The notes: generated by a model from the letters alone, not told the origin. Shown: positions 1,931-51,638, numbered from the stretch's first letter. The stretch: 64,000 nt of DNA from Candidatus Yanofskybacteria bacterium RIFCSPHIGHO2_01_FULL_43_32 (GCA_001794125.1 MGJF01000002.1:108514-172513), one strand, 5' to 3'. Numbers and translations are program-made.

Positions 1931-2103
1931 CCATCTTATCTCAAACATCGCTCAGGCCATATGCCTTCCTTCGAACCAAAATAGATTTGCTCCAGCGGCA
2001 AATCTTTCTTGTCTCTCGGCATTTCGCAGAACCAAGCCGAAATACCCCCGAGTCCTTCTCTGAAGGCACATGCCCTTCGCTTGATAAACTGGGATGAGGT
2101 GTC
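1931..2103 (+). repeat. Rep-A: ~175-bp palindromic MITE-like repeat with terminal inverted repeats, copy 1
   Basis: Aligns along its length with 51455-51638 (+) and 41805-41968 (reverse complement). Shared core is cacatgccttcc..tcgaacc..gaatagatttgctccggcggcaaatctttcttgtctctcggcat...aatgcctccgagtccttctctgaaggcacatg. The outer ends are inverted repeats (cttcatccca / tgggatgaag) and the interior is a long imperfect palindrome. Confidence 0.55.
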
Positions 2104-2108
2104 GCTTC

Positions 2109-2138
2109 TTCAACGGCTCACACATGTGAGCCGTTGAA
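2109..2138 (+). repeat. perfect 13-bp-stem hairpin ttcaacggctcacacatgtgagccgttgaa, also present at 61313-61340
   Basis: Identical 28-nt palindromic sequence at two loci. It directly abuts Rep-A copy 1 here. Confidence 0.5.
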
Positions 2139-2226
2139 ATTTGTGGGGAAAATGATATTTTATAGTTTGAGTACTCGGCTAAGATAGGGGCAGTGTGTTC
2201 TTGTAGAAAATTATCTAATTAATGTA

Positions 2227-3285
2227 ATGAAATTATTCCAGGAAAGAAAAATAGTTCGTGCTATTCAAAGTCAAATAAATAACTCTGACGAGCCAGGGGC
2301 TTATCGCACGTCGAATTTTGTACCAAAAGAAAGTTTCATTTTATATTTTTCTCAGTGGTTAATTAATGAAAAAGATAAATTAAATCGAGCTTCCCGCATC
2401 AAGCGTTACTTTATTGGGCTTAGACAAAACGAGGTCTCCGCTGCAGAACTGATGCAGGTGCTTCAATATTGCATTGATGACGGATATGTAACTAGAACTG
2501 AGTCTGACGGATACAGATTAACAAGTGCCGGAGCTTATCTGGCATCTTTATTTTTTTGGCTTCCTTCGATACCTGTTGCGGTATCTATAATAGCGATAGT
2601 AATTTCTTTTCTTGGCTTTTCTTATTCTAGGTCAACTTTTGAAAAACTTCTTCCAGAGCACCAAGCGAATATTATTTTTTCAGAAGAATCAATAAAGATT
2701 GCCGTTGACTCTAAAGGAGTTTGGTTTCAACCAGTCATTAAAAATATAGGGGTGACAACAGCAAGGGAGGTAAGATTTAGAATATATATTACACTTTTTC
2801 AAAAAAATAATCCGATTGCAGTTCCTGAATATTCCGTTAATCGAGTTTTTAATGACTATCTTGTGGCTGATTTAAATCCGGGTGAGAAAGCAAGTTTTGG
2901 GAGTTTTTCAATCGGAAGAACGTCAACAGCTAAAAATGGCAAAATCTTTGATTTATTTGAAGTCAAACCAGATGTGGCTATTATTTTTCACCTAAACTAT
3001 GTTGACCCTCTCTCTAAAAAAATAATGAGTAAGTTTTTTATTTTCCATTATTTTTATGGCAGGCTTTCCGCGAATTCACTAATTGGGGATGACTATCAAA
3101 TTATCAAGGATAAGATTGTTCAATATCTAGAGAACGAAGAAAACAAAGACCAAGAACTTGTTAATTTTGTCCGAGAAAAATATGAATTAAAAAAACACTT
3201 AGGTACCTCTGATGGCTTTAGTAAAATTTCGTTTGACTTTTTTATTTGTTTTCTAAGGATAGCTTCGTTCTTTTCTATAATTTAA
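2227..3285 (+). CDS. hypothetical membrane-anchored protein with N-terminal winged-helix-like segment
   Basis: Residues ~60-100 (VSAAELMQVLQYCIDDGYVTRTESDGYRLTSAGAYLA) look like a wHTH. They are followed by one TM helix (LFFWLPSIPVAVSIIAIVISFLGF) and a ~210-aa domain of unknown function. The gene is more AT-rich than its neighbours and is flanked by Rep-A and Rep-C repeats. Confidence 0.4.
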   Translation: MKLFQERKIVRAIQSQINNSDEPGAYRTSNFVPKESFILYFSQWLINEKDKLNRASRIKRYFIGLRQNEVSAAELMQVLQYCIDDGYVTRTESDGYRLTSAGAYLASLFFWLPSIPVAVSIIAIVISFLGFSYSRSTFEKLLPEHQANIIFSEESIKIAVDSKGVWFQPVIKNIGVTTAREVRFRIYITLFQKNNPIAVPEYSVNRVFNDYLVADLNPGEKASFGSFSIGRTSTAKNGKIFDLFEVKPDVAIIFHLNYVDPLSKKIMSKFFIFHYFYGRLSANSLIGDDYQIIKDKIVQYLENEENKDQELVNFVREKYELKKHLGTSDGFSKISFDFFICFLRIASFFSII

Positions 3286-3360
3286 AGGTGAGGATGGTTT
3301 TCGCGAGGCTTTGCCTGATTTTCTCATTTAAATTTAAGCCCAGCCCCATCGTTTTTATGT

Positions 3361-3601
3361 CACTTTGACGAGTCCCACACTCATGCATGAGTGTGGGACG
3401 AGGCGAATAAAAAGCGACGAAAGGTAACTGACTTAGAGGAACGACCCGCAGGCGCTTGGGCTTGGTTCTGCCAAGCGCCGAGGGAGAAGAAATTTTTATC
3501 GTCCCGATTTTTGTTCACAAAAATCGAGGATCCTCGATTGCGAAGCAATCGGGACTGGAATAAAAATATTCTGGTTCCGAGAAGTCAGTTGCCTTGAGCG
3601 A
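3361..3601 (+). repeat. Rep-C leader repeat copy 1 (upstream of secD), carrying two hairpin insertions
   Basis: About 150 nt here (gaggcgaataaaaagcga...cttagaggaacgacccgcaggcgcttgggcttggtt...ccaagcgccgagggagaagaaatttttatcg...ctggaataaaaatattctggttccgagaag.cagttgccttgagcga) recur at 11207-11362, with ~90% identity by eye. This copy additionally contains a hairpin at 3372-3399 and an inserted hairpin tcccgatttttgttcacaaaaatcgaggatcctcgattgcgaagcaatcgggac. Confidence 0.5.
3372..3399 (+). mobile_element. 28-bp perfect palindromic insertion (gtcccacactcatg/catgagtgtgggac) flanked by direct GACGAG duplication
   Basis: Copy 1 reads ttgACGAG[tcccacactcatgcatgagtgtgg]GACGAGgcgaataaaa. Copy 2 at 11207 reads tttaACGAGgcgaataaaa with no insert. 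This is consistent with insertion of a small palindromic element with a target-site duplication. Confidence 0.4.
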
Positions 3602-3606
3602 AACTC

Positions 3607-4923
3607 TTGCGCTCAAAAATTAGATATGTTTTAATAAACTTCGTGAAAGTTAACTATTTACTCATTGGAATAATTGTCGGGTCTCTGTTGCTCTTTGTTT
3701 TTGTGTATCCGCAGGGCGTAAGCAAATGGGTACCTGTGCCGAACGTGCCATTTCGTCTTGGTTTAGATTTGCTTGGCGGTACTCATCTTGTTTATCAGGC
3801 CGACCTTTCCAAATCGGAAAACAAAAATGATGCCATGCAGGGCGTCAGGGATGTAATTGAAAGAAGGGTTAATTTTTTCGGCGTTGCCGAGCCGTTGATT
3901 CAGATAAGCGGACAGGACCGTCTGATTGTTGAACTTGCCGGCATCAGCGACGTCGGTCAGGCCATCAAGTTGATAGGCGAAACCCCATTTCTTGAATTTA
4001 AAGAAACAAAAGCCGATACGCAGGCGATATTAGAGGCCCAGCAAAAGGGTCAGAGATTAAATGAAGATCCGTTGCAATCTACAGGGCTTAATGGCAGGCA
4101 TTTGAAACGGGCTGCGGTTGCGTTTGACCAGCAGACCTATCAGCCGCAAGTGAGTTTGGAATTAACCGACGAGGGCGCTAAACTCTTTGCCGAAATAACC
4201 AAGAAAAATTTAGGCAAGATAGTTGCGATATATTTGGACGGAGTTCCCATATCTACTCCCGTAGTCCAATCGGAAATTAAAGACGGCAACGCGGTCATTA
4301 CGGGAAAGTTCACTCCGATCGAATCCAAACTATTGGCGACAAGATTGAATTCCGGCGCTTTGCCTGTGCCGATATCTTTGGTTTCCCAGCAAACCATCGG
4401 CGCGTCTTTGGGAGCCGAATCTTTGGCAAAAAGTTTGAAGGCGGGGATTTACGGTTTGATATTGGTGGCTTTGTTCATGATTTTATTTTACCGGTTGCCG
4501 GGGGTGGTTTCGGTAATCGCTTTGGGGGTGTATGTTTTAATAGTCTTGTCTATTTATAAATTTATTCCGGTTACGCTGACCTTAGCCGGTATCGCCGGAT
4601 TTATTCTTTCGCTGGGCATGGCGGTGGACGCCAACGTTTTGATATTTGCCAGAATGAGGGAGGAATTAAAGGCCGGAAAATCAATCCGCGCGTCAATGCA
4701 TGAAGGGTTTTCACGCGCCTGGCTTTCAGTAAGGGACAGCCACGTGACCACTCTTATCGGCGCGTTTGTGCTGTACACGTTTACGACCTCTATAGTGAAA
4801 GGATTTGCCTTGACTTTGGGCATCGGAGTTTTGACGAGCTTGTTTACGGCTACGGTTGTGACAAGAACTATTTTGAATTTGATAAGCGGACCGAAAATGG
4901 AGAATAAAAAGAGGTTGTTCTAA
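3607..4923 (+). CDS. secD: protein translocase subunit SecD
   Basis: N-terminal TM, large periplasmic domain, C-terminal 6-TM SecD/SecF core (LVALFMILFYRLPGVV..., GFILSLGMAVDANVLIFARMREE). The start is uncertain: TTG at 3607 per the ORF track, with an in-frame GTG at 3643 also possible. Confidence 0.85.
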   Translation: MRSKIRYVLINFVKVNYLLIGIIVGSLLLFVFVYPQGVSKWVPVPNVPFRLGLDLLGGTHLVYQADLSKSENKNDAMQGVRDVIERRVNFFGVAEPLIQISGQDRLIVELAGISDVGQAIKLIGETPFLEFKETKADTQAILEAQQKGQRLNEDPLQSTGLNGRHLKRAAVAFDQQTYQPQVSLELTDEGAKLFAEITKKNLGKIVAIYLDGVPISTPVVQSEIKDGNAVITGKFTPIESKLLATRLNSGALPVPISLVSQQTIGASLGAESLAKSLKAGIYGLILVALFMILFYRLPGVVSVIALGVYVLIVLSIYKFIPVTLTLAGIAGFILSLGMAVDANVLIFARMREELKAGKSIRASMHEGFSRAWLSVRDSHVTTLIGAFVLYTFTTSIVKGFALTLGIGVLTSLFTATVVTRTILNLISGPKMENKKRLF

Positions 4924-4924
4924 A

Positions 4925-5827: not shown

Positions 5828-5897
5828 GAATAGTAATGATATTATATGTTCAAAGTTTAATTAAAGGGAATTACTTGGAGGGTATCGCCCTGTTTAT

Positions 5898-6968
5898 ATG
5901 AGCAAAAACAATTTAAATCTGTCAGGTCAGAGCGCGGTCACAAAGACGGTCGCAAGTTTGGTCAAAAACTTATCGGCAAGAAACAGGGACATAATTTCCA
6001 GACGTTTTGGGTTGAAGAACGGCAGGAAAGAAACCCTTGAATCCATCGGCAAAAGCTACGGCATTACCAGAGAGAGAGTGAGACAGATAGAGGAATTTAC
6101 CCTGACACAATTATCCAAAGGAACCCTCAATCCCGAAGTGGAAAAATATGCCGCTTTGGCCAAGAATATTTTGAACGAGAACGGCGGAATTATGAAAGAA
6201 AAAGATCTGTTCAAGGCCTTCTCCGGCAGTGACGCCGAATCGGTTCTCAATTCGTCTTTGGTTTTTGTTTTGACCTTGGACAAAGACCTGATTAAATTCA
6301 ACGATAACGATGATCTTCATTCTTTCTGGGCGGCCGACAATAATGTTCTGAATAATTTTAAAAACATGGCCTCGTCCTGTATAAATATTTTGGGTAAGTC
6401 GGGAAAAGTAAGTGCGGAGACGGAATTTTATAATTTAGCTAAAAAGAACGATGTTCCGGGATTAAACGGAGATCTTAATCCAAGGCACCTGGCGACTTAT
6501 ATAACGATTTCCAAGAACGTGGGCAAGAATATTTTTAATGAAGTGGGGCTGGTGTCCTGGCCGGAAATCAGACCCAAAGGCGTAAAAGACAAGGCCTACT
6601 TGGTGCTGAAGAAGAATAATGATCCTAAGCATTTCAGCGAGATTGCCAAACTGATAAATGCCGCCGGATTTCAGGGCAAGAAAGCGAATGTTCAGACCGT
6701 CCACAATGAATTGATAAAAGACAACAGGTTCGTTCTGGTAGGCAGGGGAATGTACGCCTTATCAGAATGGGGCTATAAATCCGGAACAGTAAAAGACGTC
6801 CTCGTCGACCTCCTGAAGAATTCTTCAAAACCGATGCCCAAGACCGCTCTTTTGACCAAAGTGATGAACGCCAGAATGGTAAAAGAAAACACGATTCTCT
6901 TGAATCTCCAGGACTCCAAGACCTTCGTTAAGAACGAAGACGGAACCTACGAATTAAAAGAGGCCTAA
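5898..6968 (+). CDS. sigma-70 region 4 domain-containing protein (CPR-type, no other sigma regions)
   Basis: N-terminus LSARNRDIISRRFGL.NGRKETLESIGKSYGITRERVRQIEEFTLTQL is a clear sigma70_r4 HTH. The remaining ~270 aa are uncharacterised. Confidence 0.55.
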   Translation: MSKNNLNLSGQSAVTKTVASLVKNLSARNRDIISRRFGLKNGRKETLESIGKSYGITRERVRQIEEFTLTQLSKGTLNPEVEKYAALAKNILNENGGIMKEKDLFKAFSGSDAESVLNSSLVFVLTLDKDLIKFNDNDDLHSFWAADNNVLNNFKNMASSCINILGKSGKVSAETEFYNLAKKNDVPGLNGDLNPRHLATYITISKNVGKNIFNEVGLVSWPEIRPKGVKDKAYLVLKKNNDPKHFSEIAKLINAAGFQGKKANVQTVHNELIKDNRFVLVGRGMYALSEWGYKSGTVKDVLVDLLKNSSKPMPKTALLTKVMNARMVKENTILLNLQDSKTFVKNEDGTYELKEA

Positions 6969-6976
6969 AAACAAAA

Positions 6977-7006
6977 GAGCCCCGCTACAGAGTGGGGTTC
7001 TTTTTT
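6977..7006 (+). terminator. intrinsic terminator after the 5898-6968 gene
   Basis: gagccccgctacagagtggggttc followed by tttttt. Confidence 0.5.
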
Positions 7007-7013
7007 ATAGCTG

Positions 7014-7125
7014 ACGCAACCTCTATGCATGCGGAGGGAGACACCTTTTTAAAAATTTGTTAATTTTGTAAAAAGTGTCTCCCTCCGCCGGTTGTTTAAG
7101 TGGCAAATGGCGGTTGGCCATAGAG
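7014..7125 (+). repeat. Rep-B hairpin repeat, copy A
   Basis: caacctctatgcatgcggagggagacacc[AT-rich loop]ggtgtctccctccgccggttgtttaagt.. Same architecture as 11051, 15206, 22415(-), 37944(-) and 61398(-). Confidence 0.55.
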
Positions 7126-7186
7126 ATTCAAACTCTCTCTGATTAAAACCGGTTCAAAAGGCAGGTTGGACGTACCTTACGCAGGG

Positions 7187-7215
7187 TTGACTTTATAAAC
7201 TTTCTCTGCTATAAT
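7187..7215 (+). promoter_or_regulatory. sigma-70 consensus promoter (TTGACT -17 nt- TATAAT) driving the DUF397 gene
   Basis: TTGACT 7187-7192, 17-nt spacer, TATAAT 7210-7215. RBS aaaggaaaagag before ATG 7255. Confidence 0.55.
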
Positions 7216-7254
7216 TTAGAGCGCAGTCGGCAATGACTGCAGAAAGGAAAAGAG

Positions 7255-7464: not shown

Positions 7465-7471
7465 CCCGAAC

Positions 7472-8078: not shown

Positions 8079-9329
8079 ATGGATCAATTCTCTTTTGCTT
8101 TAGATTCTCTGCAAACTGTTTTGTGGTTTCTTGCTGGTTATTGGTGGATATTTCTGCCGGTTTTGTTGTTTTTTGGCCTGATGACCGCCTTTGAGACCTA
8201 TACAAAAATGAAATACATCAAATCCATAAAATGGACTCTTGTGAATTTGAAAATTCCGCAAGACCCCGGCAAGAGTCCCAAGGCCACGGAGCAAATATTT
8301 GCCGCGCTCCACGGTACTTTGCCTCCTCCGATAATATGGAGAAACAAATTTTTTAAGGGTACTATGGTTAACTGGATTTCTTTAGAGATAGTCGGTATCG
8401 GAGGAGAAACCCATTTTTACGTAAGAATGCCGGAACAATTTAAGAAATTGGTTCAATCCCAGATTTACGCGCATTATCCCGATGCGGAAATTTCTGAAGT
8501 TGCCGACGACTATGTTAACTTACTGCCTGCGTCTTTGCCAAATGATGCGTACGACCTTTTTGGGTCGGAAATAATTTTAAGCAAGGAGGATTTTTACCCT
8601 ATCAGGACTTATCCCGAATTTGAAGAGAAGTCCAGCGGTCCCGATTATGTAAAAAGAATTGACCCCTTGGCATCCTTGGCGGAAGTTCTTTCGAGTTTAG
8701 AAGCGGGCGAATTCTTGGGCGTACAATTGATTATCAGGCCGACCGGAGACGGTTGGGTTAAAAAAGGCCAGTCCGAGATGGATAAATTGCAAGGCAAGAA
8801 GTCTAAAGCCGGAGAAAGCATGCTGTCTAATCTTGTTTTTGAAATTGATAAAATTATTCCCGGGCATGTGGAGGTTGAAAAATCAGAAAAGAAACCGGAA
8901 CAAACTCAATTAACTTCGGGCAAACAGGAAGCCATAAAAGCGGCTGAAAGAAAAATGTCTAAGCTTGGCTACGAATGCGGAATAAGATTTATGTATTCGG
9001 GGCCCAAAGAGAATTTTCACAGAGCTCACATATCCGGCGTAGTGGGGGTTTTTAAGCAGTATGCTTTGCAGACCATTAACAGCTTTAAGCTCAATGGTCC
9101 TACGATAACCGCCGGCAAATGGCCTTTCAAAAAACAGAAAGAGTATAACAAAAAAATATTTTTCTTAAATAAATATAAAAACCGGTCATTGCCGGCGAAG
9201 GCCTTTATACTGAACATAGAGGAATTAGCAACGATATACCATCTTCCTGATATCGGCGTGAAGTCGCCGTTACTGCCGAGGGTTGAAGCAAAGAAAGGCG
9301 AACCGCCGGTCGGGTTGCCCATAGGTTAG
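8079..9329 (+). CDS. hypothetical membrane-anchored protein, upstream partner of the TraD-like ATPase
   Basis: N-terminal TM (LWFLAGYWWIFLPVLLFFGLM), then a ~370-aa soluble part with no recognised motif. Separated by only 16 nt from the downstream ATPase on the same strand. Confidence 0.4.
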   Translation: MDQFSFALDSLQTVLWFLAGYWWIFLPVLLFFGLMTAFETYTKMKYIKSIKWTLVNLKIPQDPGKSPKATEQIFAALHGTLPPPIIWRNKFFKGTMVNWISLEIVGIGGETHFYVRMPEQFKKLVQSQIYAHYPDAEISEVADDYVNLLPASLPNDAYDLFGSEIILSKEDFYPIRTYPEFEEKSSGPDYVKRIDPLASLAEVLSSLEAGEFLGVQLIIRPTGDGWVKKGQSEMDKLQGKKSKAGESMLSNLVFEIDKIIPGHVEVEKSEKKPEQTQLTSGKQEAIKAAERKMSKLGYECGIRFMYSGPKENFHRAHISGVVGVFKQYALQTINSFKLNGPTITAGKWPFKKQKEYNKKIFFLNKYKNRSLPAKAFILNIEELATIYHLPDIGVKSPLLPRVEAKKGEPPVGLPIG

Positions 9330-9345
9330 GCCGGATAATTAAATT

Positions 9346-11016
9346 ATGGTTTCATCGGAACAAAAAGAAACGGTTTTTTTGGGGGAGACAAGCTTTAGGA
9401 ACAATAAGGTCCGTTTTGGCATTAAACAGGATGACCGCAGAAGGCACATGTATGTCGTCGGTTCAACCGGAATGGGAAAGTCCGAATTTCTCAAGAGTAT
9501 GGCCATTCAGGATATTGAAGCTGGACGGGGCGTATGTTTTATTGATCCTCACGGCGATTCGGCCGATGATCTGCTCGACTATGTTCCGGAAAACCGGATA
9601 AAAGACGTTATTTATTTTGATCCGGATGACCTGCAATATCCCATAGCATTTAACGTTATGGAGGGAATAGGGTTTGACTATAGGCACTTGGTTGCATCGG
9701 GTCTCGTGGGCGTGTTTAAAAAAATTTGGGGAGCTGAAGCGTGGTCCGGAAGGATGGAATATATTTTAAATAATACCATTTTGGCTCTTCTTGAATATCC
9801 GGATTCAACCCTTCTGGGAATCAATAGATTGATGTCCAGTAAAGAATATCGGAAAAAAGTTGTTGCCAATGTAACTGACCCGATCGTTAAAGCTTTTTGG
9901 ACTGACGAATTTGCCAAATACGCCGACAAATTTGCTACAGAAGCTACGGCGGCCATACAAAACAAAGTCGGACAATTCGCCTCAAATAATGTCATCAGAA
10001 ATATTCTCGGCCAGCCCAAATCCAAGATAAATATCAGAAAGATCATGGATGAAGGCAAAATCATGATTGTTAATGTTTCAAAAGGCAAGATTGGAGAAGA
10101 CGCCTCGCGTTTATTGGGAGCTTTTCTTATTACTAAAATACAATTGGCGGCGATGTCGAGAGTTGATACGCCCGAATCAGAAAGAAAGGATTTTTATCTG
10201 TATGTAGACGAGTTTCAAAATTTTGCGACGGAATCTTTCGCTAATATTTTGTCGGAAGCCAGAAAATATCATTTGAGCTTGGTGATGGCCCATCAATATA
10301 TAAAACAAATGGAAGAACCGGTTATGGATGCGGTGTTTGGAAACGTCGGCACTATTGTTTCTTTCAGGGTCGGCGCCGAAGATGCCGAATATTTGGAAAA
10401 ATGGTTCCAGCCAGATTTTATGATGAATGATATTGTAAATCTCGGGAAGCGTAGTATGTATCTGAAGTTGATGATAAGCGGTGTCTCGTCAAAAGGATTT
10501 TCGGCCTCAACGCTGGAAAGATTTCCCAAACTGGAAAACTCAAACCGCCAGGCAATAATTGACGCCTCACGTGAGGCTTATAGCACCCCGAAGAGTATCG
10601 TAGAAAAAGAAATAGCCGAATGGGCCGGGCCGGTTGCTGAAGAATCTTTCACGAGACCAATACCGGAGCGCAAAAGAGATGACAGGCCCTTCAGCTCGGT
10701 TCAGGGCAAGCCAGCTTATGGACCGCCTCCCCTTCGACCAAACTCAGGTCAGGGCAGAGAAGGGAGGCCTTATCCGCCGAGAAGAGAAGAAAATAGGCCG
10801 CCATCTAGACCGCCTCAAAATAATATTCAAACCATCAAGCCCAAAGAGGCGTCTTTGAGCGCCTTAACTGCCCCAGTCGATTTCAGGGGCCGTAAAATAG
10901 ATGATAAATGGAAGGGAAAGAAACCTTCCTTCGCTAAAGCTTCGGAGGGCAAAAAGGAAGTAGACACCGGCGAATTGAAGAAACTGCTGGAGGAGTCGTT
11001 GAAAAAGAAAGAATAA
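9346..11016 (+). CDS. TraD/TrwB/VirD4-like P-loop NTPase (type IV coupling-protein / DUF87-like family) with disordered Pro/Arg-rich C-terminal tail
   Basis: Walker A YVVGSTGMGKSEF, FIDPHGD, Walker B FYLYVDEFQNFA, LSLVMAHQY arginine-finger region. The last ~130 aa are low-complexity (PPPLRPNSGQGREGRPYPPRREENRPPSRPPQ). Confidence 0.5.
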   Translation: MVSSEQKETVFLGETSFRNNKVRFGIKQDDRRRHMYVVGSTGMGKSEFLKSMAIQDIEAGRGVCFIDPHGDSADDLLDYVPENRIKDVIYFDPDDLQYPIAFNVMEGIGFDYRHLVASGLVGVFKKIWGAEAWSGRMEYILNNTILALLEYPDSTLLGINRLMSSKEYRKKVVANVTDPIVKAFWTDEFAKYADKFATEATAAIQNKVGQFASNNVIRNILGQPKSKINIRKIMDEGKIMIVNVSKGKIGEDASRLLGAFLITKIQLAAMSRVDTPESERKDFYLYVDEFQNFATESFANILSEARKYHLSLVMAHQYIKQMEEPVMDAVFGNVGTIVSFRVGAEDAEYLEKWFQPDFMMNDIVNLGKRSMYLKLMISGVSSKGFSASTLERFPKLENSNRQAIIDASREAYSTPKSIVEKEIAEWAGPVAEESFTRPIPERKRDDRPFSSVQGKPAYGPPPLRPNSGQGREGRPYPPRREENRPPSRPPQNNIQTIKPKEASLSALTAPVDFRGRKIDDKWKGKKPSFAKASEGKKEVDTGELKKLLEESLKKKE

Positions 11017-11050
11017 ACAGCTCCAGCCAGCACAATTTATTTCGATAGTT

Positions 11051-11195
11051 CACACAACCTCCATGCATGCGGAGGGAGACGCCTTCATCCCACGAAGAAC
11101 CGCATAAAACCCTGCTGGGTTTTTGCTCTCTCTCGGCTACCCGCCTGCGAACGTTCTTCTTTGGAATGAAGGCGTCTCCCTCCGCCGGTTGCTAT
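11051..11195 (+). repeat. Rep-B hairpin repeat, copy B, with a ~90-bp element nested in its loop
   Basis: cacaacctccatgcatgcggagggagacgcc[...]ggcgtctccctccgccggttg. The usual AT-rich loop is replaced by 11083-11172. Confidence 0.5.
11083..11172 (+). mobile_element. short palindromic element with Rep-A-type terminal inverted repeats (cttcatccca ... tggaatgaagg) inserted in the Rep-B loop
   Basis: The terminal sequences match the Rep-A ends. The interior (cgaagaaccgc...gcgaacgttcttctt) is itself palindromic. Confidence 0.4.
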
Positions 11196-11206
11196 TGTTT
11201 TTATAT

Positions 11207-11362
11207 CACTTTAACGAGGCGAATAAAAAGCGAAAGGCAATTGGCTTAGAGGAACGACCCGCAGGCGCTTGGGCTTGGTTCCTCCAAGCGCCGAGGGAGA
11301 AGAAATTTTTATCGCTGGAATAAAAATATTCTGGTTCCGAGAAGCCAGTTGCCTTGAGCGAG
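11207..11362 (+). repeat. Rep-C leader repeat copy 2 (upstream of the HD-domain gene)
   Basis: See 3361-3601. It lacks the two hairpin insertions of copy 1. Confidence 0.5.
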
Positions 11363-11406
11363 TCTTGCTGTTTGGTAAGTTTGTGTTATTTTAGCGGTAT
11401 TGAGTT

Positions 11407-12931: not shown

Positions 12932-12935
12932 GATG

Positions 12936-13008
12936 TGCGCCCAGTTGGATTCGAACCAACGACCGTCTCCTTAAAAGGGAGCTGCTCTACCAACTGAGCT
13001 ATGGGCGC
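12936..13008 (-). tRNA. tRNA-Lys (anticodon TTT)
   Basis: Minus strand reads GCGCCCATAGCTCAGTTGGTAGAGCAGCTCCCTTTTAAGGAGACGGTCGTTGGTTCGAATCCAACTGGGCGCA. The 7-bp acceptor, D, anticodon (loop CTTTTAA, U33, A37) and T arms all fold. The T-loop is TTCGAAT. CCA is not encoded. Confidence 0.8.
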
Positions 13009-15172: not shown

Positions 15173-15205
15173 TCGGACAAATGTCCGGTTTTTTAATTTT
15201 AATAA

Positions 15206-15327
15206 CTCACACAACCTCTATGCATGACTGCGGGGTGCCCTTTTCTAAAATCTTACTAATTTTATAAAAGGGCACGCCCTCCGCCAGTTGTTTAAGTAAT
15301 AGCTTACAATTGGCAATAGGGTTTCAA
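15206..15327 (+). repeat. Rep-B hairpin repeat, copy C
   Basis: cacacaacctctatgcatgactgcggggtgccc[ttttctaaaatcttactaattttataaaa]gggcacgccctccgccagttgtttaagt. Confidence 0.55.
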
Positions 15328-15590
15328 AGTAATAAAGCGCAGCCCGGCATCTTATTGAAGCCCGTCCGAACAGGCGGGCTTGGTGTCCACGCCATAGTTC
15401 GTAAGAGAAGCTATTCAAGCTTTAGGCTTTCCGTCAGATGAGTAATGCTATTCAATAAACATCATGATATGGCAGGCTGGACCCGCCGTCGTGAGGACAA
15501 GTGGAGCCAATCGCTGGAGCAATCGGAACGGGCTGAAATAAGGTGTCGGGCGGAGCTTGTCTGACAATGTTTTTATGTTAAGATAAAATC

Positions 15591-22315: not shown

Positions 22316-22414
22316 AGTTTATTTATTTAAGCTTGATTATCTTACTATATTAAAGCATATTTTGCAACAATTCCTTTTAGTTTGAACTTTTATTGCCAAT
22401 TGTCGTCTATTACC

Positions 22415-22500
22415 CAGGCAACCGGCGGAGGGCATGCCCTTTTATAAAATTAGCAAGATTTTAGAAAAGGGCATGCCGCAGCATGCATGGAGGTTGTGTC
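22415..22500 (-). repeat. Rep-B hairpin repeat, copy D (reverse orientation)
   Basis: Reverse complement: cacaacctccatgcatgctgcggcatgccc[ttttctaaaatcttgctaattttataaaa]gggcatgccctccgccggttg. Confidence 0.55.
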
Positions 22501-22516
22501 AACTATAGTTCAGATA

Positions 22517-37873: not shown

Positions 37874-37943
37874 CTTTTACTAAGTATCCTGCATTATCCG
37901 GAAGAGTTTGAACTTCTCTTGCTAATTGTCATTTACAACCAAA

Positions 37944-38025
37944 GCAACCGGCGGAGGGTGTGCCCTTTTATAAAATTAGCAAGATTTTAGAAAAGGGCAC
38001 CCCGCAGTCACGCATGGAGGTTGTG
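37944..38025 (-). repeat. Rep-B hairpin repeat, copy E (reverse orientation)
   Basis: Reverse complement: cacaacctccatgcgtgactgcggggtgccc[ttttctaaaatcttgctaattttataaaa]gggcacaccctccgccggttg. Confidence 0.55.
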
Positions 38026-39576: not shown

Positions 39577-39837
39577 ATGCTCGTTCCGTGTCCTTTCAGG
39601 GGCGACCACAAAATTCGAGAGGGCCACATGCACGGCCCGAGCCAGTGTCCGCCGCCGGCTGGTGAACACGGTGACCACCGCCGCAACAAGCGTCTTCGCG
39701 CTCGGTTTCGTGCCAGGCAGTCAGAAGGTATCATTGAGAACCGTGGCGTGGCTGTTGCCGGCGTCGGCGGGAATCAGGCCAAGTCCCATCGGCAGGGAAA
39801 GAAGGCGGCCAAGACCAAGACCGGGACCAGTGTCTAA
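39577..39837 (+). CDS. 86-aa basic, His/Pro/Arg-rich hypothetical protein (GC-rich cassette)
   Basis: MLVPCPFRGDHKIREGHMHGPSQCPPPAGEHGDHRRNKRLRARFRARQSEG... About 62% GC. Textbook promoter, SD and terminators. No known domain. Confidence 0.4.
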   Translation: MLVPCPFRGDHKIREGHMHGPSQCPPPAGEHGDHRRNKRLRARFRARQSEGIIENRGVAVAGVGGNQAKSHRQGKKAAKTKTGTSV

Positions 39838-39852: not shown

Positions 39853-39912
39853 GGGGGCGACAACGTGTCGCCCCCTAATTTTTTAAATGGAGCATTTGCT
39901 CCTTTTTTGTTT
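39853..39912 (+). terminator. two tandem intrinsic terminators
   Basis: gggggcgacaacgtgtcgccccc followed by taatttttt, then ggagcatttgctcc followed by ttttttgtttt. Confidence 0.55.
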
Positions 39913-40188
39913 TCTTAAAATCGCTCAACCCTAACCCATTCTCGGGCACGGCATAAATTCTTGCTGGAATTTTGCCTCGTATTACAGAGATTCCCGGACT
40001 AAAGCACCGTGAACCTTCTCCGAGCCACTCCGTCGAGTTCCGTAAGTCCCTCTAATAGATTAGGGTTTCGCTTTTGCTTAATTAAGAGCGACCAGCCATA
40101 TACCCACAGGGAGAACTTGCGCAGGCCCGAAGCTTGGTGCTTGGTGAGGGCCGAGCATGTAGATAGCGCCGAGCCGCTGGAGCGAGGC

Positions 40189-40221
40189 GACTATCGGTCG
40201 AGTCGGGGGTATGTGGCTGGG
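40189..40221 (+). promoter_or_regulatory. conserved ~33-nt core of a ~60-nt motif (gctgagg.gactatcggtcgagtcgggggtatgtggctggg.gcga) ~40 nt upstream of the UDG start; second copy at 52103-52134 upstream of rseP
   Basis: Near-identical 32-nt core in both places. Looser similarity extends ~15 nt on each side. Confidence 0.3.
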
Positions 40222-40260
40222 AGCGAATCTGTTCACAACCCAAACAGCTTATAGTAAACT

Positions 40261-41804: not shown

Positions 41805-41968
41805 CTTATTTTAAAAACCGCTCGGGATATATGCCTTCAGAGAAGGACTCGGAGGCATTCAGGCTTGGTTCTGCGAAATGCCGAGAGACAAGAAAGATTT
41901 GCCGCCGGAACAAATCTATTCTGGTTCGATGAAGGTATATGTCCTGGCGGTTCTATGGGATGAAGTAG
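41805..41968 (-). repeat. Rep-A palindromic MITE-like repeat, copy 2 (reverse orientation)
   Basis: Reverse complement aligns with copies 1 and 3 along the full length. Confidence 0.55.
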
Positions 41969-45834: not shown

Positions 45835-45841
45835 AATCGAA

Positions 45842-46225: not shown

Positions 46226-46229
46226 GGTA

Positions 46230-46442: not shown

Positions 46443-46496
46443 TTCTTAGCGTGGGATTTGCGTCAGGCACTCGAAAAAAGGTAAAATTATTGCAGG

Positions 46497-47630: not shown

Positions 47631-47633
47631 AAC

Positions 47634-47798
47634 ATGCAAGTTCAATTAATAGTGGGTTTAGTCATAACCGGTTTGGTTGTCTTGTATGTCTACTTAAAAA
47701 AAACCGGCCGACATGAGGCGAATCTTCCGGCGGTTTCAGAAGATGTTAATCTGCCGGCAATAAAAAATGACATGGAAAACAACGGGCCACAACAATAA
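47634..47798 (+). CDS. possible 54-aa single-TM peptide
   Basis: ATG 47634 to TAA 47798, hydrophobic N-terminus. Overlaps the holB start in another frame. Weak. Confidence 0.15.
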   Translation: MQVQLIVGLVITGLVVLYVYLKKTGRHEANLPAVSEDVNLPAIKNDMENNGPQQ

Positions 47799-48498: not shown

Positions 48499-48525
48499 AG
48501 GTCTTTTTTGGTATTCAAACATAAC

Positions 48526-48554
48526 TTGATTATATTTGAATTGTGCTGTATAAT
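48526..48554 (+). promoter_or_regulatory. promoter TTGATT-17-TATAAT for the two-gene GC-rich operon, flanked by TTCAAA/TTTGAA dyad
   Basis: TTGATT 48526-48531, TATAAT 48549-48554. SD AAGAGGT 48585-48591. Inverted ttcaaa(48514)/tttgaa(48535) around the -35. Confidence 0.5.
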
Positions 48555-48598
48555 ATTGAACTGGTGGTCTTTGGCAATTGAATAAGAGGTAAGAAAAA

Positions 48599-50152
48599 AT
48601 GACGGGACTAATTTTTCAGGGAATCCTGATTGCGGCCCTCGCAGGTCTGGCTATCAAGTTTTTCCTGGACTACCAGAGAAATAATCTGGAAATTACGTGG
48701 GGAGAATACGGCCTTGGGCTTTTGGCAATCAGCTTCGTGTTGACTCCGCTGATAGTCTGGGCCGGCTGGTCGGTAGTAAGGTCGAGCAACCTTTCGTTCA
48801 ATGAGTACAGGAACGGTTGGGAACTGCAGGCTGTGGCCGAACCGGTTCAGTGTGCCCGTGACGGCCCTTGCTGGCACGAGTATGACTGCGACCCGTACAT
48901 CGTCATGGTTTCGTATCAGTGCAATTGTACGACGGATAAAGACGGACGCAGTTCGTGTAGTACGTGCTGGCGTCCGGAAACGCGTTATCACGATTGCCCG
49001 TATGTTACAGTAGAGACATCGTATTCCGTGCAGACGACTCTTGGCAGTTACACGATTGCCGAGCATCGGTTTCCGGAAAATCCGCAATCTCATCGGTGGC
49101 GGACTTCGAAAAACATTCCCCAGTATGTAATTGACAGAGTTGGCGTTAGTGAGCCGCAGTTTTGGAAAGCGGCTGACGTCAGAGTCCGGGCAGGAAAGCC
49201 CGGGCCTGTAACGGCGCGAGCCAGTTACGACAACTACATTTTGGCGAGTGATTCAACTATTCTGAACCAATATTCGGGAGAAGTTGAAAAGTTGCTTGCC
49301 GTGAAAATGTTGCCGGAGTTGTCTCACGGTTTGTATGATTACTACATGGCGAGGAAGGCCTACTCTGTCGGCCCGACGCTTCGTGTAGATACAGGAGCGT
49401 GGTCCGAAAAAGTGGCATACCTGAACGCGGCACTCGGTTCGGAACTTCAGGGAGATCTTCACGTTGTTCTGATTCATGATGCTGACCTCAGAAAGGTCGG
49501 CAGTAGTCCGGATGAATATGCCCTAACGCTAAAAGCCTACTGGCAGAATACGAAACACTTCCAGAAGGATGCTTTGAGTAAAAATACCATTGTCGTTGTT
49601 GTTGGAACAAAGGACGGTGAGTCTGTCAGTTGGGTCCGCGCGATGATCGGCATGCCGCTTGGCAACGAGCGGATGATTACCGAGATCCGAAACAGTCTTG
49701 TGGGTGTGCCGTTTTTGCCGGAGGCGGTTATCGGAGGCATCCGGGGCCATTTTGAAATCTATGGCCAGAAGGTAAAAAGCAGTCAGGAAGTGAACGGCCG
49801 TCTGGGCTCTATCATCTGGGGACGGGAATTGAAAGAAACCCGTTTCAGGCGAGTGAGCATGTCGTCCAAAGATCCTGACGATTTCGGGCAAGGCTTCAGA
49901 TACCTTGCCAATGAAATCCAACTCACATGGTTCCAGCATGGCATGATCCTTTTTCTGTCATTGCTGGGGTGCGGTGTCGTGTGGTACGCTGCTGCAGCGC
50001 ACGGCATTCGTGATCCGCGCAATCATTCCGGGCCATTCGATGTCAACCGCATCAAGAAGTGGTGGAAGTCCCAGTGGCGGGAGATGCGGGCCTGGATCCG
50101 TGTTCAGAAAACCAGCATCGCCGACAAGGTCGGCGGAAGGAGGACGGAATGA
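48599..50152 (+). CDS. hypothetical 3-TM membrane protein with large Cys-rich extracytoplasmic domain and basic Trp-rich C-terminal tail (GC-rich cassette gene 1)
   Basis: TM1 LIFQGILIAALAGLAIKFF, TM2 GLGLLAISFVLTPLIVWAGWSVV. 10 Cys between residues 85 and 130 (CARDGPCWHEYDCDPY...CNCTTDKDGRSSCSTCW...CPY). TM3 MILFLSLLGCGVVWYAAAA. Tail KKWWKSQWREMRAWIRVQK. About 53% GC. No family recognised. Confidence 0.5.
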   Translation: MTGLIFQGILIAALAGLAIKFFLDYQRNNLEITWGEYGLGLLAISFVLTPLIVWAGWSVVRSSNLSFNEYRNGWELQAVAEPVQCARDGPCWHEYDCDPYIVMVSYQCNCTTDKDGRSSCSTCWRPETRYHDCPYVTVETSYSVQTTLGSYTIAEHRFPENPQSHRWRTSKNIPQYVIDRVGVSEPQFWKAADVRVRAGKPGPVTARASYDNYILASDSTILNQYSGEVEKLLAVKMLPELSHGLYDYYMARKAYSVGPTLRVDTGAWSEKVAYLNAALGSELQGDLHVVLIHDADLRKVGSSPDEYALTLKAYWQNTKHFQKDALSKNTIVVVVGTKDGESVSWVRAMIGMPLGNERMITEIRNSLVGVPFLPEAVIGGIRGHFEIYGQKVKSSQEVNGRLGSIIWGRELKETRFRRVSMSSKDPDDFGQGFRYLANEIQLTWFQHGMILFLSLLGCGVVWYAAAAHGIRDPRNHSGPFDVNRIKKWWKSQWREMRAWIRVQKTSIADKVGGRRTE

Positions 50153-50814
50153 ACGGTCGACGAAGCAAGAGGGGTTCGGTGCCGGTTCTGCTCATCATCA
50201 CTGTTGTGGTGTTGGGCGGTCTGTTCGCCGGTGGCGTGTCGTTATACGGCTACGCTAACGGAGTCCGCAACAATCTGGTTAGTCAGGAGACGGCGCTCAA
50301 TGCGCAGTATCAAGACAACCAGAATGAGCTTGGGAACTATGAAGTCGCGTTCTACGAGCAGACAGGGCTGGCAAATCTTAAGTCGGAGAAGATGGATAAG
50401 ATCATCTCCGATGCGGTCAAGGGCCGGTATGAAGGGAAGGACGGCCAGCCCGTTGAACGCGGGCAAGGCGGAGCCTTCTTCTCCGCTATGGTCGAGGCTT
50501 ATCCTGATCTTCGCGGTCAGCTCGATGTTTATGACAAGATAATTTCATTCGTTGCCTCCGGGCGCGAGGCCTACAAAGCCAAGCAGTCCAAACAGCTTGA
50601 CATGCTCCGCGCGTACGAGAGTTACAGGCAGACCGGATGGGTCCGGAGCCTGTTTGTCAATTGGATCGGTTATCCGTCGCTTCGGGCCCAGATCGGACAG
50701 AAGGTCGTTCGTGGAACGGACGCCTTGTCTCAAATGGAACTGATTGTTACCACCGAGACGACAAATCAATCGTATGAGTCGGGCAAGATGAAGGCGCTCA
50801 CAGTTCCCGAGTAG
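50149..50814 (+). CDS. LemA-family protein (GC-rich cassette gene 2)
   Basis: ATGA-coupled to gene 1. N-terminal TM then NNLVSQETALNAQYQDNQNEL...YPDLRGQLDVYDKIIS...QLDMLRAYESYRQ, the LemA (PF04011) layout. Confidence 0.55.
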   Translation: MNGRRSKRGSVPVLLIITVVVLGGLFAGGVSLYGYANGVRNNLVSQETALNAQYQDNQNELGNYEVAFYEQTGLANLKSEKMDKIISDAVKGRYEGKDGQPVERGQGGAFFSAMVEAYPDLRGQLDVYDKIISFVASGREAYKAKQSKQLDMLRAYESYRQTGWVRSLFVNWIGYPSLRAQIGQKVVRGTDALSQMELIVTTETTNQSYESGKMKALTVPE

Positions 50815-50837
50815 GAATGATGGCCAGAAATGGTCTC

Positions 50838-50868
50838 GGGCCGCGGATTACGCGGCCCGTTTTTTTTA
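50838..50868 (+). terminator. strong intrinsic terminator
   Basis: gggccgcggattacgcggccc followed by gttttttttatt. Confidence 0.6.
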
Positions 50869-50894
50869 TTAAAATTTTGTGATATATTATAAAA

Positions 50895-51449
50895 ATGTAT
50901 AAGGACCACATAAATCAGAGGAAAAAGGATTTTGATGCCGCGGTTGAACATGTCAGAGGCGAGATAGGAGCTATCAGGACCGGCCGGGCCCATGCTTCCA
51001 TGGTTGAAGATATTCAAGTTGATTATATGGATTCTAAATTCAGAATTAAAGAATTGGCAACTATTAATACTCCCGAACCGCGAATGATTCTTATCCAGCC
51101 ATGGGATAAGCAGGCCATACCCAATATTGTTAAAAGTATCAAAGAAAGTTCTTTAGGCTTAAATCCGATTGACGATGCCACCGGCATTAGATTGAATATC
51201 CCGCCGTTGACCGAGGAACGCAGATTGGAATTTATTAAATTGCTTCACCAAAAAATAGAGTGGGGCAAGGTCAGGGTAAGGCAGGTGCGGGAAGATGTCT
51301 TAAAAAAGGTCCAAGCCGAGGTCAAAGAGAAAAAAGCCAGGGAAGACGATCTGTTCAAAGCCAAAGAAGAACTTCAAAAAATAATAAATGATCTGAACCG
51401 TGTCTTTGACGACATGACAAAGAAGAAAGAACAAGAATTGATGTCGTGA
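50895..51449 (+). CDS. frr: ribosome recycling factor
   Basis: Canonical RRF sequence throughout. Confidence 0.9.
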   Translation: MYKDHINQRKKDFDAAVEHVRGEIGAIRTGRAHASMVEDIQVDYMDSKFRIKELATINTPEPRMILIQPWDKQAIPNIVKSIKESSLGLNPIDDATGIRLNIPPLTEERRLEFIKLLHQKIEWGKVRVRQVREDVLKKVQAEVKEKKAREDDLFKAKEELQKIINDLNRVFDDMTKKKEQELMS

Positions 51450-51454
51450 TAAGT

Positions 51455-51638
51455 TCCGCCTTCATCCCAAATCACCGCTCAGGACACATGCCTTCCTCGA
51501 ACCGGAATAGATTTGCTCCGGCGGCAAATCTTTCTTGTCTCTCGGCATTATTTAAGAACCAAGCAAATAATGCCTCCGAGTCCTTCTCTGAAGGCACATG
51601 TCCTTCGCCTGATAAACTGGAATGAAGGTGCCGCTTTT
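51455..51638 (+). repeat. Rep-A palindromic MITE-like repeat, copy 3
   Basis: Aligns with 1931-2103 and rc(41805-41968). Ends are ccgccttcatccca / tggaatgaaggtgccgc. Confidence 0.55.

Follow-up and report, generated by a model that had tools for sequence, protein, structure and literature searches.

Rep-A, an interspersed repeat of CPR bacteria defined by a conserved branched fold

INTRODUCTION

The bcr1 element of the Bacillus cereus group is a non-coding intergenic repeat of ~155 bp. It is present in many copies, the positions of which are not conserved among related strains, and it is flanked on either side by an invariable 5-bp direct repeat. bcr1 is transcribed, and its cruciform-like RNA fold is maintained by compensatory changes (PMC3184786). 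The ERIC/IRU elements of enterobacteria are imperfect palindromes of ~127 bp, found between genes in both orientations; these elements are co-transcribed and influence mRNA stability through their RNA structure. ERIC-type elements carry TIRs, target duplications and a flanking TA (PMC3184786). Classical MITEs are IS-derived, and conserved TIRs and target duplications are their defining features (PMC3184786).

Here we describe Rep-A, a repeat found in a 64-kb stretch of DNA (the window) from Candidatus Yanofskybacteria (Parcubacteria/CPR). CPR are ultra-small groundwater bacteria with small and streamlined genomes. This stretch of housekeeping genes has eight copies of one elaborate fold. We came across no account of comparable repeat families or non-coding RNAs in CPR bacteria, and a search of the literature on repeats or RNA motifs of CPR, Parcubacteria and Yanofskybacteria gave nothing specific to it.

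Other structured elements are relevant to this comparison. REPs are simple hairpins of 20-40 nt, with a RAYT gene in the genome. HEARO (the omega RNA of IscB) and the TnpB omega RNAs are multi-copy, apparently mobile and strongly covarying; each lies beside its iscB or tnpB gene and terminates in a guide. Comparative genomics found them before their function was known, and the HEARO repeats later proved to be guide RNAs of IscB. The attC sites are imperfect palindromes that function as a folded single strand, with free sequence, conserved structure and, in some, branched apices. Their ends carry conserved R''/R' core sites, they are placed after each cassette with uniform orientation, and they require the integron integrase.

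RESULTS

Copies of Rep-A in the window

Using a Rep-A covariance model built in this analysis together with exact repeats, we found five strong copies, two divergent copies, a 'mini' relative and a 33-nt fragment in the window. Scores are bits from this model. The strand listed for c1 (minus) is the better-folding one; an earlier reading had c1 on plus. The model match follows that earlier reading (c1 plus, c2 minus and c3 plus, for example) and is referred to below as the original orientation.

1931..2103 (model core 1946-2087), minus strand (model match plus): c1, type A, 139 bits
3373..3398, no strand: 26-nt perfect palindrome TCCCACACTCATGCATGAGTGTGGGA within the flank module of c4, with a CTCG duplication at its sides
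3410..3603, plus strand (model match minus): c4, type B, 137 bits
11071..11186 (11083-11172 in the earlier reading), minus strand: 'mini' relative, 31.5 bits, E ~2e-5
11223..11363, plus strand (model match minus): c5, type B, the top-scoring copy, 153 bits
39919..40078, minus strand (model match plus): divergent copy, weakly supported, 24.5 bits, E ~9e-4
40081..40228, plus strand (model match minus): divergent copy, 44.9 bits, E ~9e-9
41813..41968 (model match 41813-41953), plus strand (model match minus): c2, type A, 135 bits
51455..51638 (model match 51473-51615), minus strand (model match plus): c3, type A with full P0, 138 bits
52102..52134, no strand: 33-nt fragment, an exact repeat of 40189-40221

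The type A copies differ in their outer arms. c1, which begins 20 nt downstream of the sortase stop codon, has degenerate P0 arms and energies of -35.7 (+) versus -53.5 (-) kcal/mol, while c2 has the left P0 arm only, the right arm being absent. c3 occupies the entire RRF-NUDIX spacer; its P0 arms (51460-51469 / 51619-51628) have one mismatch, and the region 51450-51645 has energies of -67 (+) versus -82 (-) kcal/mol. Of the type B copies, c4 precedes the likely secD start by 47 nt and hosts in its P2 loop a nested, Y-shaped palindrome of 53 nt (3502-3554), an insert found at the identical loop position in L010 and L014 and in no other place. The module adjacent to c5 is identical to the c4 flank module except that the TCCCACACTCATGCATGAGTGTGGGA palindrome is missing.

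The 'mini' relative retains the P0 arms, the junction, P2 and the base of P3 with its CTCTCGGC / GCCTGCG flanks, and has neither P1 nor the P3 hairpin (energies -46.4 versus -53.7 kcal/mol). The window also has a second palindromic family, Rep-B, and 'mini' takes the place of the AT-rich apex in the Rep-B hairpin copy at 11040-11199. The two divergent copies form an abutting inverted pair, and comparable pairs, abutting or close, were found at L010 and L001. The copy at 40081-40228, with a near relative in L070 (841-982), has a different P1 (CCAGCCACATACCC) and retains CTCCAGCGG, CTCGGC, ACCAAGC and GCCTGCG. One arm and the junction of this divergent copy make up the 33-nt fragment, which sits inside another hairpin.

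The first-pass annotation had reported three copies aligning over their full length, at 1931-2103, 41805-41968 and 51455-51638, and these coordinates were right (139, 135 and 138 bits). The internal ggacacatgccttc / gaaggcacatgtcc helix that it described is real and corresponds to P1. Its terminal arms (cttcatccca / tgggatgaag, P0) are present in c3 with one mismatch, but are degenerate in c1 and lack the right side in c2. It had also proposed a 'mini' version at 11083-11172 nested within another palindrome; this is a true relative by its score, and alignment of Rep-B confirms the nesting. All four of these elements stand, but 3410-3603, 11223-11363, 40081-40228, 39919-40078 and the fragment 52102-52134 were missed. 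We agree that Rep-A copies generate spurious ORF calls: the ORFs that overlap them, such as the one at 1659-1934 on the minus strand and over the sortase gene, are without support.

Fold and covariation

Rep-A has a core of ~130 nt in units of 130-190 nt. The fold is a rod running from an optional P0 through P1 and Pj to P3, with P2 as a side branch at a three-way junction. The apical loop of P3 is GCUUGGUUC, the loop of P2 is CGCUGGA, and the helices are set apart by purine-rich internal loops with tandem G·A. The fold z-score was -6.5, the same for each strand. In a set of 19 sequences 94% of positions were paired and 22 of 39 pairs had changes on both sides; in a set of 46 sequences 95% of cells were paired and 35 of 39 pairs had such changes. 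None of 500 shuffles matched either set, although this control overstates independence because many of the sequences are related. Covariation in the 46 sequences was 0.57, compared with 0.15 when shuffled and ~0.1 or less in slid controls. The column pairs of highest mutual information were the predicted pairs plus an extra junction pair, 133:216, and the Pj helix also covaries. Given the fold z-score and the failure of any of 500 shuffles to reproduce the pairing or the covariation, Rep-A is not a chance structure.

The sequence of the helices varies freely while the hairpin loops and junctions are nearly invariant; in L020, L027 and L002 nearly all stem positions are altered and the loops are kept. 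The terminal arms P0 and P1 are the most variable parts, and the internal loops and junctions are the invariant ones. The family is defined by its conserved single-strand fold and not by its ends. Covariation of the helices is incompatible with coding, and together with stop codons in type B it ruled out a conserved small ORF. The conserved branched hairpin suggests that Rep-A acts as a structured RNA-type repeat and not as a plain miniature transposon.

Comparison with known RNA families and tRNA

A gathering-threshold scan of the whole window with Rfam 15 detected tRNA only. Permissive Rfam scans of all copies gave no match to the cores above chance level, and the fold matches 0 of 4227 Rfam families, including HEARO, ribozymes, Y RNA and 5S. 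The Rfam scan suggested by the first-pass annotation in case Rep-A were a known structured RNA was therefore negative over the copies. The same annotation saw a hint of tRNA-derived origin in a GGTTCGA box on the complement. This box is present, in the junction of the better-folding strand, and with UUGGUU in the P3 loop it resembles a T-loop and D-loop, which speaks for a tRNA-derived (SINE-like) element. It is, however, a 7-mer only, and its GUUC forms part of helix Pj rather than of a T-arm. ARAGORN and the Rfam tRNA model, negative at this box, detect the true tRNA-Lys at 12935-13008 as the only tRNA, and the permissive Rfam scans were empty over the copies. We consider a tRNA-derived origin close to refuted.

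The strand under selection

In the original orientation P1 contains 43 A·C versus 11 G·U oppositions (40 haplotypes). In 43 of 46 copies the complement is the better-folding strand, by a mean of 7.9 kcal/mol, an asymmetry that could partly reflect base composition since the junctions are purine-rich on this favoured strand. A GCGA//GAGC tandem G·A lies at the base of both P1 and P0. When c5 is compared with its orthologue in L007, from a genome ~80% identical, the P1 differences stay G·U pairs on the favoured (+) strand only. Structural selection thus appears to act on the strand complementary to the original orientation. DNA hairpins are likewise stabilised by G·T and tandem G·A.

Runs of T follow P1 in 18 of 41 copies on the original strand versus 9 of 41 on the other strand, an excess that makes simple transcription of the favoured strand a poor fit. 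Scans of the copies for promoters and terminators on both strands gave no consistent signal. In many copies the favoured strand is directly preceded by AT-rich boxes (TAAAAA, TTAATTAA, TATGAT), and c2 has a TTGCCC-16-TAAAAT site upstream.

Copies frequently begin 0-27 nt past a stop codon with no intervening terminator (c3, L003, L005 and L008). Such positions, and the T-runs after P1 in 18 of 41 copies, are what one might expect if Rep-A were a passive structural spacer, a bidirectional terminator or insulator hairpin duplicated by recombination and having no specific partner. A terminator, however, could do without invariant loops, a side branch and junction pairs, and many copies lie upstream of promoters or are oriented without a T-run. 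We believe this explanation to be very improbable.

Ends, target duplications and transposases

The ends of Rep-A are TCGCT / AGCGA. TCGCT is the sole recurrent flank repeat; it is constant across copies and is also part of the fold. Target-site duplications had been proposed as a check at the copy boundaries, and we found no signal of a site-specific one: the best symmetric flank repeat averaged 4.68 nt versus 4.45 nt when the flanks of different copies were paired. Within a copy, the two sides of P0 and of P1 form inverted repeats, and their sequences differ between copies (types A, B, the CCAGCC type and others), with P0 optional or one-sided. Pfam searches revealed no transposase or IS with Rep-A ends among the ~65 ORFs of the window and the ORFs beside copies elsewhere, and no HUH, RAYT or TnpA (Y1 transposase) genes in the window or beside copies.

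The first-pass annotation had called Rep-A a 'TIR-bounded MITE-like element'. For a classical MITE, an IS deletion derivative moved by cut-and-paste through a TIR-binding transposase, speak the size, the lack of coding capacity, the TIRs in c1 and c3, the multi-copy intergenic spread and the presence/absence differences, and the invariable TCGCT flank might represent a target-specific duplication. However, conservation is lowest at the termini, which differ even among copies of one genome, no variable duplication exceeds the control, and the searches above gave no parent IS or transposase. Compensatory evolution and invariant loops across distant lineages are also unexpected from neutral decay of an interior. 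Conserved loops and junctions with variable helices are the reverse of a TIR-defined MITE, and we regard this designation as improbable.

The lack of a variable target duplication is shared with HUH elements and would suit a single-stranded-DNA element, folded in the lagging-strand template or as a cruciform and moved in trans by an HUH/Y1-type or other recombinase (cf. REP/REPIN-RAYT, IS200/IS605-derived PATEs and attC). The strand-specific tolerance of G·T fits a folded DNA strand as well as RNA, the small palindromes inserted exactly in hairpin loops would mark single-stranded targets, and the abutting inverted pairs are reminiscent of REPIN doublets. We nevertheless find such an element unlikely: no HUH, RAYT or TnpA gene was found in the window or beside any copy, the ends are without attC R''/R' cores, the copies are neither arrayed nor co-oriented, and the unit far exceeds REPs (20-40 nt) in size and complexity. 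IS200/IS605-type elements have a replication-strand bias, but within the window the orientations of Rep-A are balanced with respect to the dominant gene strand (4:4).

Occurrence and turnover

The first-pass annotation had proposed a search for further copies; we found >50 outside the window, confined to CPR genomes and metagenome contigs, and no match to the core pattern in viral contigs. Its basic description was upheld: Rep-A is a palindromic, MITE-sized repeat that is non-coding, intergenic and multi-copy. The copies are randomly oriented and sit among housekeeping genes, with sortase, secD, an HD-domain gene, frr, NUDIX, subtilase, dnaE, pnp, smpB, pth and mreB as neighbours. No recurring neighbour gene was found, and distant genomes show unrelated housekeeping neighbours. 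ORFs of ~1070 aa beside three copies were considered as a partner protein and turned out to be orthologous dnaE genes. Relative to the gene on one side, 23 copies have the same and 16 the opposite orientation. These proportions, taken with respect to the downstream gene, and the good promoters lying between copy and gene (c2 and the rpmF locus) led us to reject a riboswitch-like cis-regulatory leader.

Genomes that are ~80% identical differ at orthologous sites in the presence, type and orientation of copies; the site orthologous to that of c2 in L005/L013, for instance, has a type B copy in the opposite orientation. c5 and its L007 orthologue are ~95% identical, compared with 79-81% for the flanking genes. 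c3 is identical in nine strain-level contigs, and no empty site was found at strain level: 26 contigs with identical flanking proteins keep the copies unchanged. Rep-A copies are fixed within the population. We found no clean pair of filled and empty sites with defined boundaries; orthologous spacers were replaced wholesale or rearranged. L003, L006 and L010 are module chimeras, and nested inserts are seen in the P2 loop of c4 and with 'mini' inside Rep-B.

Fixation, and evolution slower than that of the adjoining genes, would be natural for a new stand-alone class of structured ncRNA, in which each copy is a gene with its own promoter, the loops bind protein or RNA, and the copies are paralogues, not mobile DNA. 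The covarying helices, invariant loops, strand-specific wobble and tandem G·A agree with this, as do the restriction of insertions to terminal loops, the AT-rich boxes upstream of the favoured strand and the TTGCCC-16-TAAAAT site of c2. Eight copies in 64 kb, chimeras, abutting inverted pairs, truncations, fragments, and swaps of type and orientation at orthologous sites are, however, unusual for sRNA genes. The promoter and terminator scans were inconsistent on both strands, and the AT-rich box is so near the GCGA motif that the motif would fall outside the transcript. We hold this explanation to be doubtful.

DISCUSSION

The Rep-A fold is upheld by compensatory evolution in several CPR lineages, and no Rfam family matches it. 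It would represent either a selfish repeat spreading via its folded strand or a new class of RNA. We tentatively favour, at a probability of roughly 45%, a bcr1/ERIC-like, structure-dependent, non-autonomous interspersed repeat of Parcubacteria-type CPR that probably acts as RNA. Copies would spread or exchange by transposition in trans, by recombination between copies, or by both, and a putative factor would recognise the TCGCT boundary and the strand in its folded state. This structure would be RNA, produced when neighbouring units are transcribed, and by analogy with bcr1 and ERIC it may serve as a transcript end, stability or processing module.

A possible but weaker candidate, modelled on HEARO/IscB, is an undescribed, CPR-specific class of structured RNA. 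Its invariant loops (GCUUGGUUC and CGCUGGA) and purine-rich internal loops would be putative docking sites for protein, and Rep-A would supply the RNA part of a new mobile or RNA-protein system. For practical purposes, Rep-A copies break CPR MAG assemblies, since many contigs end in copies, and the covariance model could serve to annotate them.

Among known systems, attC differs from Rep-A as follows: Rep-A has a conserved interior, mixed orientation and housekeeping neighbours, and no R''/R' cores at its ends. HEARO and the omega RNAs share multiple copies and a covarying structure with Rep-A, which has no adjacent IscB/TnpB-type ORF (Pfam) and no Rfam match, and the two ends of which pair together. 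Like REP/BIME and REPIN, Rep-A consists of extragenic palindromes in both orientations, with some inverted doublets and mosaics with other repeats; unlike REP/REPIN it forms a three-way junction of 130-190 nt, with no RAYT within the 64-kb window. Correia/NEMIS and other MITEs resemble it in size, inverted terminal arms, intergenic location and presence/absence differences, but Rep-A has variable ends, a conserved interior and no parent IS that we could find.

Rep-A is, like ERIC, an intergenic palindrome in either orientation, but it adopts a branched fold, and the constant TCGCT is all that it shows of TIR, duplication or TA features. From bcr1 it differs in phylum (CPR) and shows no sequence relation; its fold is branched, with loops invariant across separate lineages, and its TCGCT flank is part of the fold. 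Like bcr1, Rep-A is intergenic, non-coding and of similar size, with a constant 5-bp flank, compensatory changes and positions that shift.

Copies of Rep-A in the window

The first-pass annotation had described three copies of a palindromic intergenic element, Rep-A. These (c1, c2 and c3, type A) were located where it had placed them and could be aligned end to end. A repeat search of the window recovered two more relatives on the minus strand, 3418-3601 and 11231-11361, in the same register with ~67% identity. Compared with c1-c3, these two copies (c4 and c5, type B) carry paired changes in every helix and identical loops and linkers. A covariance model, R1, was built from 19 Rep-A copies and scanned over the window with filters off.

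Rep-A copies in the window, with R1 scores
1946-2087, plus strand, c1, 139 bits
3410-3603, minus strand, c4, 137 bits
11071-11186, plus strand, truncated relative (mini), 31.5 bits, E about 2e-5
11223-11363, minus strand, c5, 153 bits
39919-40078, plus strand, divergent copy, 24.5 bits, E about 9e-4
40081-40228, minus strand, divergent copy, 45 bits, E about 9e-9
41813-41953, minus strand, c2, 135 bits
51473-51615, plus strand, c3, 138 bits

The mini had been proposed to share its termini with Rep-A, and the arms of its outer helix, P0 (CCTTCATCCCA / TGGAATGAAGG), are indeed common to it and c3. Its nesting in Rep-B, a second palindromic family, also held: it occupies the place of the AT-rich apex in one of five Rep-B hairpins. 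Thirty-three nucleotides of the divergent copy at 40081-40228 are repeated exactly at 52102-52134. This fragment lies within another hairpin, AAAACATCGCC...GGCGATGTTTT (52085-52145), just upstream of an M50 peptidase gene.

Fold and covariation

In the orientation in which the element was first read (the original orientation), the ~130-nt core consists of P1, an internal loop, the 5′ strand of Pj, P2, U-S-U, P3a, P3b, the 3′ strand of Pj, a loop and P1′.

Helices of Rep-A
P0: outer helix, additional in type A copies
P1: 14 bp, sequence free
Pj: 5′ strand GGAAC or GAAC, 3′ strand GUUCC
P2: base AGAAU/UUUCU invariant, middle free, loop UCCWGCG
P3a: CYC/GRG
P3b: 9 bp, free, loop AGAACCAAGC

When 19 sequences were aligned with MAFFT, 94% of cells were paired and 22 of the 39 pairs had changes on both sides. 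None of 500 shuffles scored as high, and slid controls were 37-54% paired. With 46 sequences aligned to the model, an alignment biased towards it, 95% of cells were paired, double changes occurred in 35 of 39 pairs and covariation was 0.57 versus 0.15 in shuffles; because these sequences are related, shuffling is a generous control.

The fold is supported independently by distant members, by a blind ranking and by Pj. In six distant members from other genomes (L002, L012, L020, L027, L069 and L089) nearly all stem positions have changed and pairing is kept. When column pairs were ranked blindly by mutual information, the predicted pairs came out on top. Pj covaries too: L027 has G-C for A-U and L020 has AAGAA/UUCUU. 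Mutual information also revealed an extra junction pair, column 133 with 216, which is G-C or C-G in 93% and lengthens P3a; P3 and Pj then stack without a break, and P2 branches off to the side.

Insertions are confined to the terminal loops. Six copies have an additional hairpin in the P3 loop, with ACCAAGC still kept there, and a Y-shaped palindrome of 45-53 nt is inserted behind CCAG in the P2 loops of c4 and of copies L010 and L014 from other genomes. This palindrome, TCCCGAT...ATCGGGA (window 3502-3554; L010 about 1520-1575; L014 about 6935-6987), stands in three different Rep-A backgrounds and was found only within Rep-A P2 loops, invariably after CCAG.

The probable strand under structural selection

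On four counts, the structural strand is more likely the complement of the original orientation (the favoured strand). First, across 40 distinct haplotypes, P1 in the original orientation contains 43 A·C and 11 G·U oppositions; an A·C on one strand is a G·U on the other. Second, folding energy is better on the complement in 43 of 46 copies, with a mean gain of 7.9 kcal/mol (for c3, -82 versus -67 kcal/mol), a gap that may be inflated by base composition. Third, between c5 and its orthologue in the related contig L007, P1 transitions stay G·U pairs on the favoured strand only. Fourth, P1 on that strand has the base 5′-GCGA...GAGC-3′, as does P0, giving two G-C pairs and tandem G·A/A·G, and in the P1/Pj internal loop AGAG faces GAG; on the original strand the same motifs would be pyrimidine-pyrimidine oppositions.

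The distribution of T-runs conflicts with this evidence from pairing and energy, since they follow P1 in 18 of 41 copies on the original strand and in 9 of 41 on the other. That Rep-A copies are passive terminator spacers is very improbable. We also consider it unlikely that these folds represent a family of stand-alone ncRNA genes. No record of Rep-A was found in Rfam or the literature, and a known RNA family, an attC site, a REP, an omega RNA and a tRNA derivative were each rejected as its identity. The tRNA-derived origin that the first-pass annotation had drawn from a T-loop-like box can be given hardly any credence.

Ends and genomic surroundings

Rep-A had initially been taken for a MITE defined by terminal inverted repeats. 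That definition does not fit: the ends are variable, the loops of the interior do not vary, no variable duplication was seen, and no parent IS was seen in the window or next to copies elsewhere. A classical MITE is improbable. In a search for target-site duplications, the best symmetric flank repeat averaged 4.68 nt versus 4.45 nt for mismatched flanks. The sole recurrent flank repeat is TCGCT (original strand), identical in every copy and situated immediately outside P1 on both sides and again outside P0 where P0 is present. One possibility is a target duplication of fixed sequence, by analogy with the constant 5-bp repeat at the ends of bcr1 (PMC3184786); equally, TCGCT could be no more than the motif of GC and tandem G·A that belongs to the Rep-A fold. 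No transposase, integrase or reverse transcriptase lies within the 64-kb window. The alternative of a single-stranded-DNA element that depends on a recombinase not seen here is rather doubtful.

Every Rep-A copy is intergenic. Neighbours in the window are genes for a sortase, an unknown protein, SecD, a VirD4-like ATPase, an HD-domain protein, UDG, a VTT-domain protein, a subtilase, RRF and NUDIX; the remaining genes concern cell wall, replication, repair and translation, and nearly all window genes are on the plus strand. In other genomes copies adjoin dnaE, rpmF, pnp, smpB, pth, lepB, mreB, htrA and an RNase H, and among all these copies no neighbour gene turns up repeatedly except through orthology. 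Relative to the gene on the 3′ side of the favoured strand, 23 copies have the same and 16 the opposite orientation (4 to 4 in the window). Counted from the end that is 5′ in the original orientation, either a stop codon is 0-55 nt away or a start codon is, mostly, at 27-99 nt; from the opposite end the next gene is typically 150-200 nt away. At c2, and at the rpmF locus as judged by eye, a good promoter match separates the copy from the downstream gene, so a role as leader of these genes was ruled out.

Several features of the surroundings were recorded. A 416-aa protein without Pfam match precedes a VirD4/TraG-like coupling ATPase (8079-11016; ATPase at 9346-11016, with DUF87, TrwB and TraG-D_C domains), and syntenic L007 has about 700 more bases and one more ORF between the ATPase gene and c5. 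An 86-aa ORF without Pfam match (39577-39837), called in some strain contigs only, is followed by two successive terminator-like hairpins (39853-39875 and 39889-39902); the matching spacer of the related contig L005 is about 600 nt shorter.

Occurrence and turnover

A strict core pattern, scanned over GTDB with one genome per species, matched in three genomes only, all CPR MAGs: CAZZGH01, labelled Saccharibacteria (13 matches in 11 contigs), Parcubacteria Gr01-1014_3 (2) and Patescibacteria H41-bin108_1 (1). The viral contigs scanned gave no match. A looser pattern in metagenomes gave at least 28 matches in at least 18 contigs verified by R1; judging by contig and sample names, several of the matches listed are from Hainich groundwater ("Hain-H..") and from samples also holding the window's own genes.

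The window and contigs of CAZZGH01 are syntenic, with a nucleotide identity of about 80%. Copy c5 is kept in L007 at the same place and orientation and is about 95% identical, and is therefore more conserved than its flanking genes. In the other genome the c2 site holds a type B copy in opposite orientation, lying partly at an end of L005 and partly at an end of L013. In L013 a copy follows the subtilase gene; the window's counterpart is a 113-nt spacer containing a plain terminator. At 61274-61528 the window has other repeats, whereas L006 has a chimeric copy, and divergence begins directly after ...CACATYGCT. The dnaE-rpmF spacer carries a type A copy in each of three related genomes; L039 has one further copy there in opposite orientation, and the L025 copy lacks one P0 arm and has the unusual P3 ATTATTT/AAATAAT of c3. 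Modules are also mixed: L003 combines type B linkers with type A P1 and P3, L006 a type A left arm with a type B right arm, and L010 a type B P3 with a type A P1.

No movement was seen within the Rifle population, where copies were unchanged in 26 of 26 contigs with identical flanking proteins and strain contigs showed isolated single-base differences only. In many Rifle assemblies this population is essentially clonal over the compared regions (0-1 differences per 5 kb).

Other small repeats

Rep-B, intergenic and with five copies in the window, has a conserved head ATAGYTCACACAACCTCCATGCATG, a GC-rich hairpin with an AT-rich apex and a tail TCCGCCGGTTG; a right half resembling it also occurs near 61400. 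A third family is a near-identical terminator-like hairpin, CAACGGCTCACACATGTGAGCCGTTG, found in the window and related genomes. Type B and some other Rep-A copies come with a conserved flank module that reads TTTTTATRTCACTTTRACGAGGCGAATAAAAAGCG on the favoured strand; its opposite strand, TGATATAAA, is an extended -10-like box. In the module beside c4, a 26-nt perfect palindrome with a flanking 4-nt CTCG duplication is missing beside c5 and the L007 orthologue, and has the look of a small, clean insertion.

Other repeats and modules
7002-7143, 11040-11199, 15197-15332, Rep-B
22377-22507, 37896-38025, Rep-B, reverse complement
2111-2136, 61314-61339, CAACGGCTCACACATGTGAGCCGTTG hairpin (also L007 299-324; L089 4554-4579; L097 2544-2569; L119 150-175)
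3340-3410, 11190-11230, flank module (also L007 250-290; L058 about 10100-10150; L070 about 790-840)
3373-3398, 26-nt palindrome

Interpretation and comparison with known elements

Rep-A behaves as an interspersed repeat: it is dense, randomly oriented, chimeric and nested, and turns over between species-level relatives. It also behaves as though selection acted on its structure in one strand. Our tentative reading, to which we assign a probability of about 45%, is that Rep-A is a CPR-specific, structure-dependent, non-autonomous repeat, most likely acting as RNA. Its interest lies in its unusually clean covariation and its poorly explored host group.

Among elements already described, bcr1 of the Bacillus cereus group and ERIC of enterobacteria come nearest: both are intergenic repeats that are structured, show compensatory changes and have effects at the RNA level (PMC3184786). 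The structured interspersed repeat is a known kind of element; what is new is the Rep-A family, its host group and its branched fold, with invariant loops maintained across CPR lineages.
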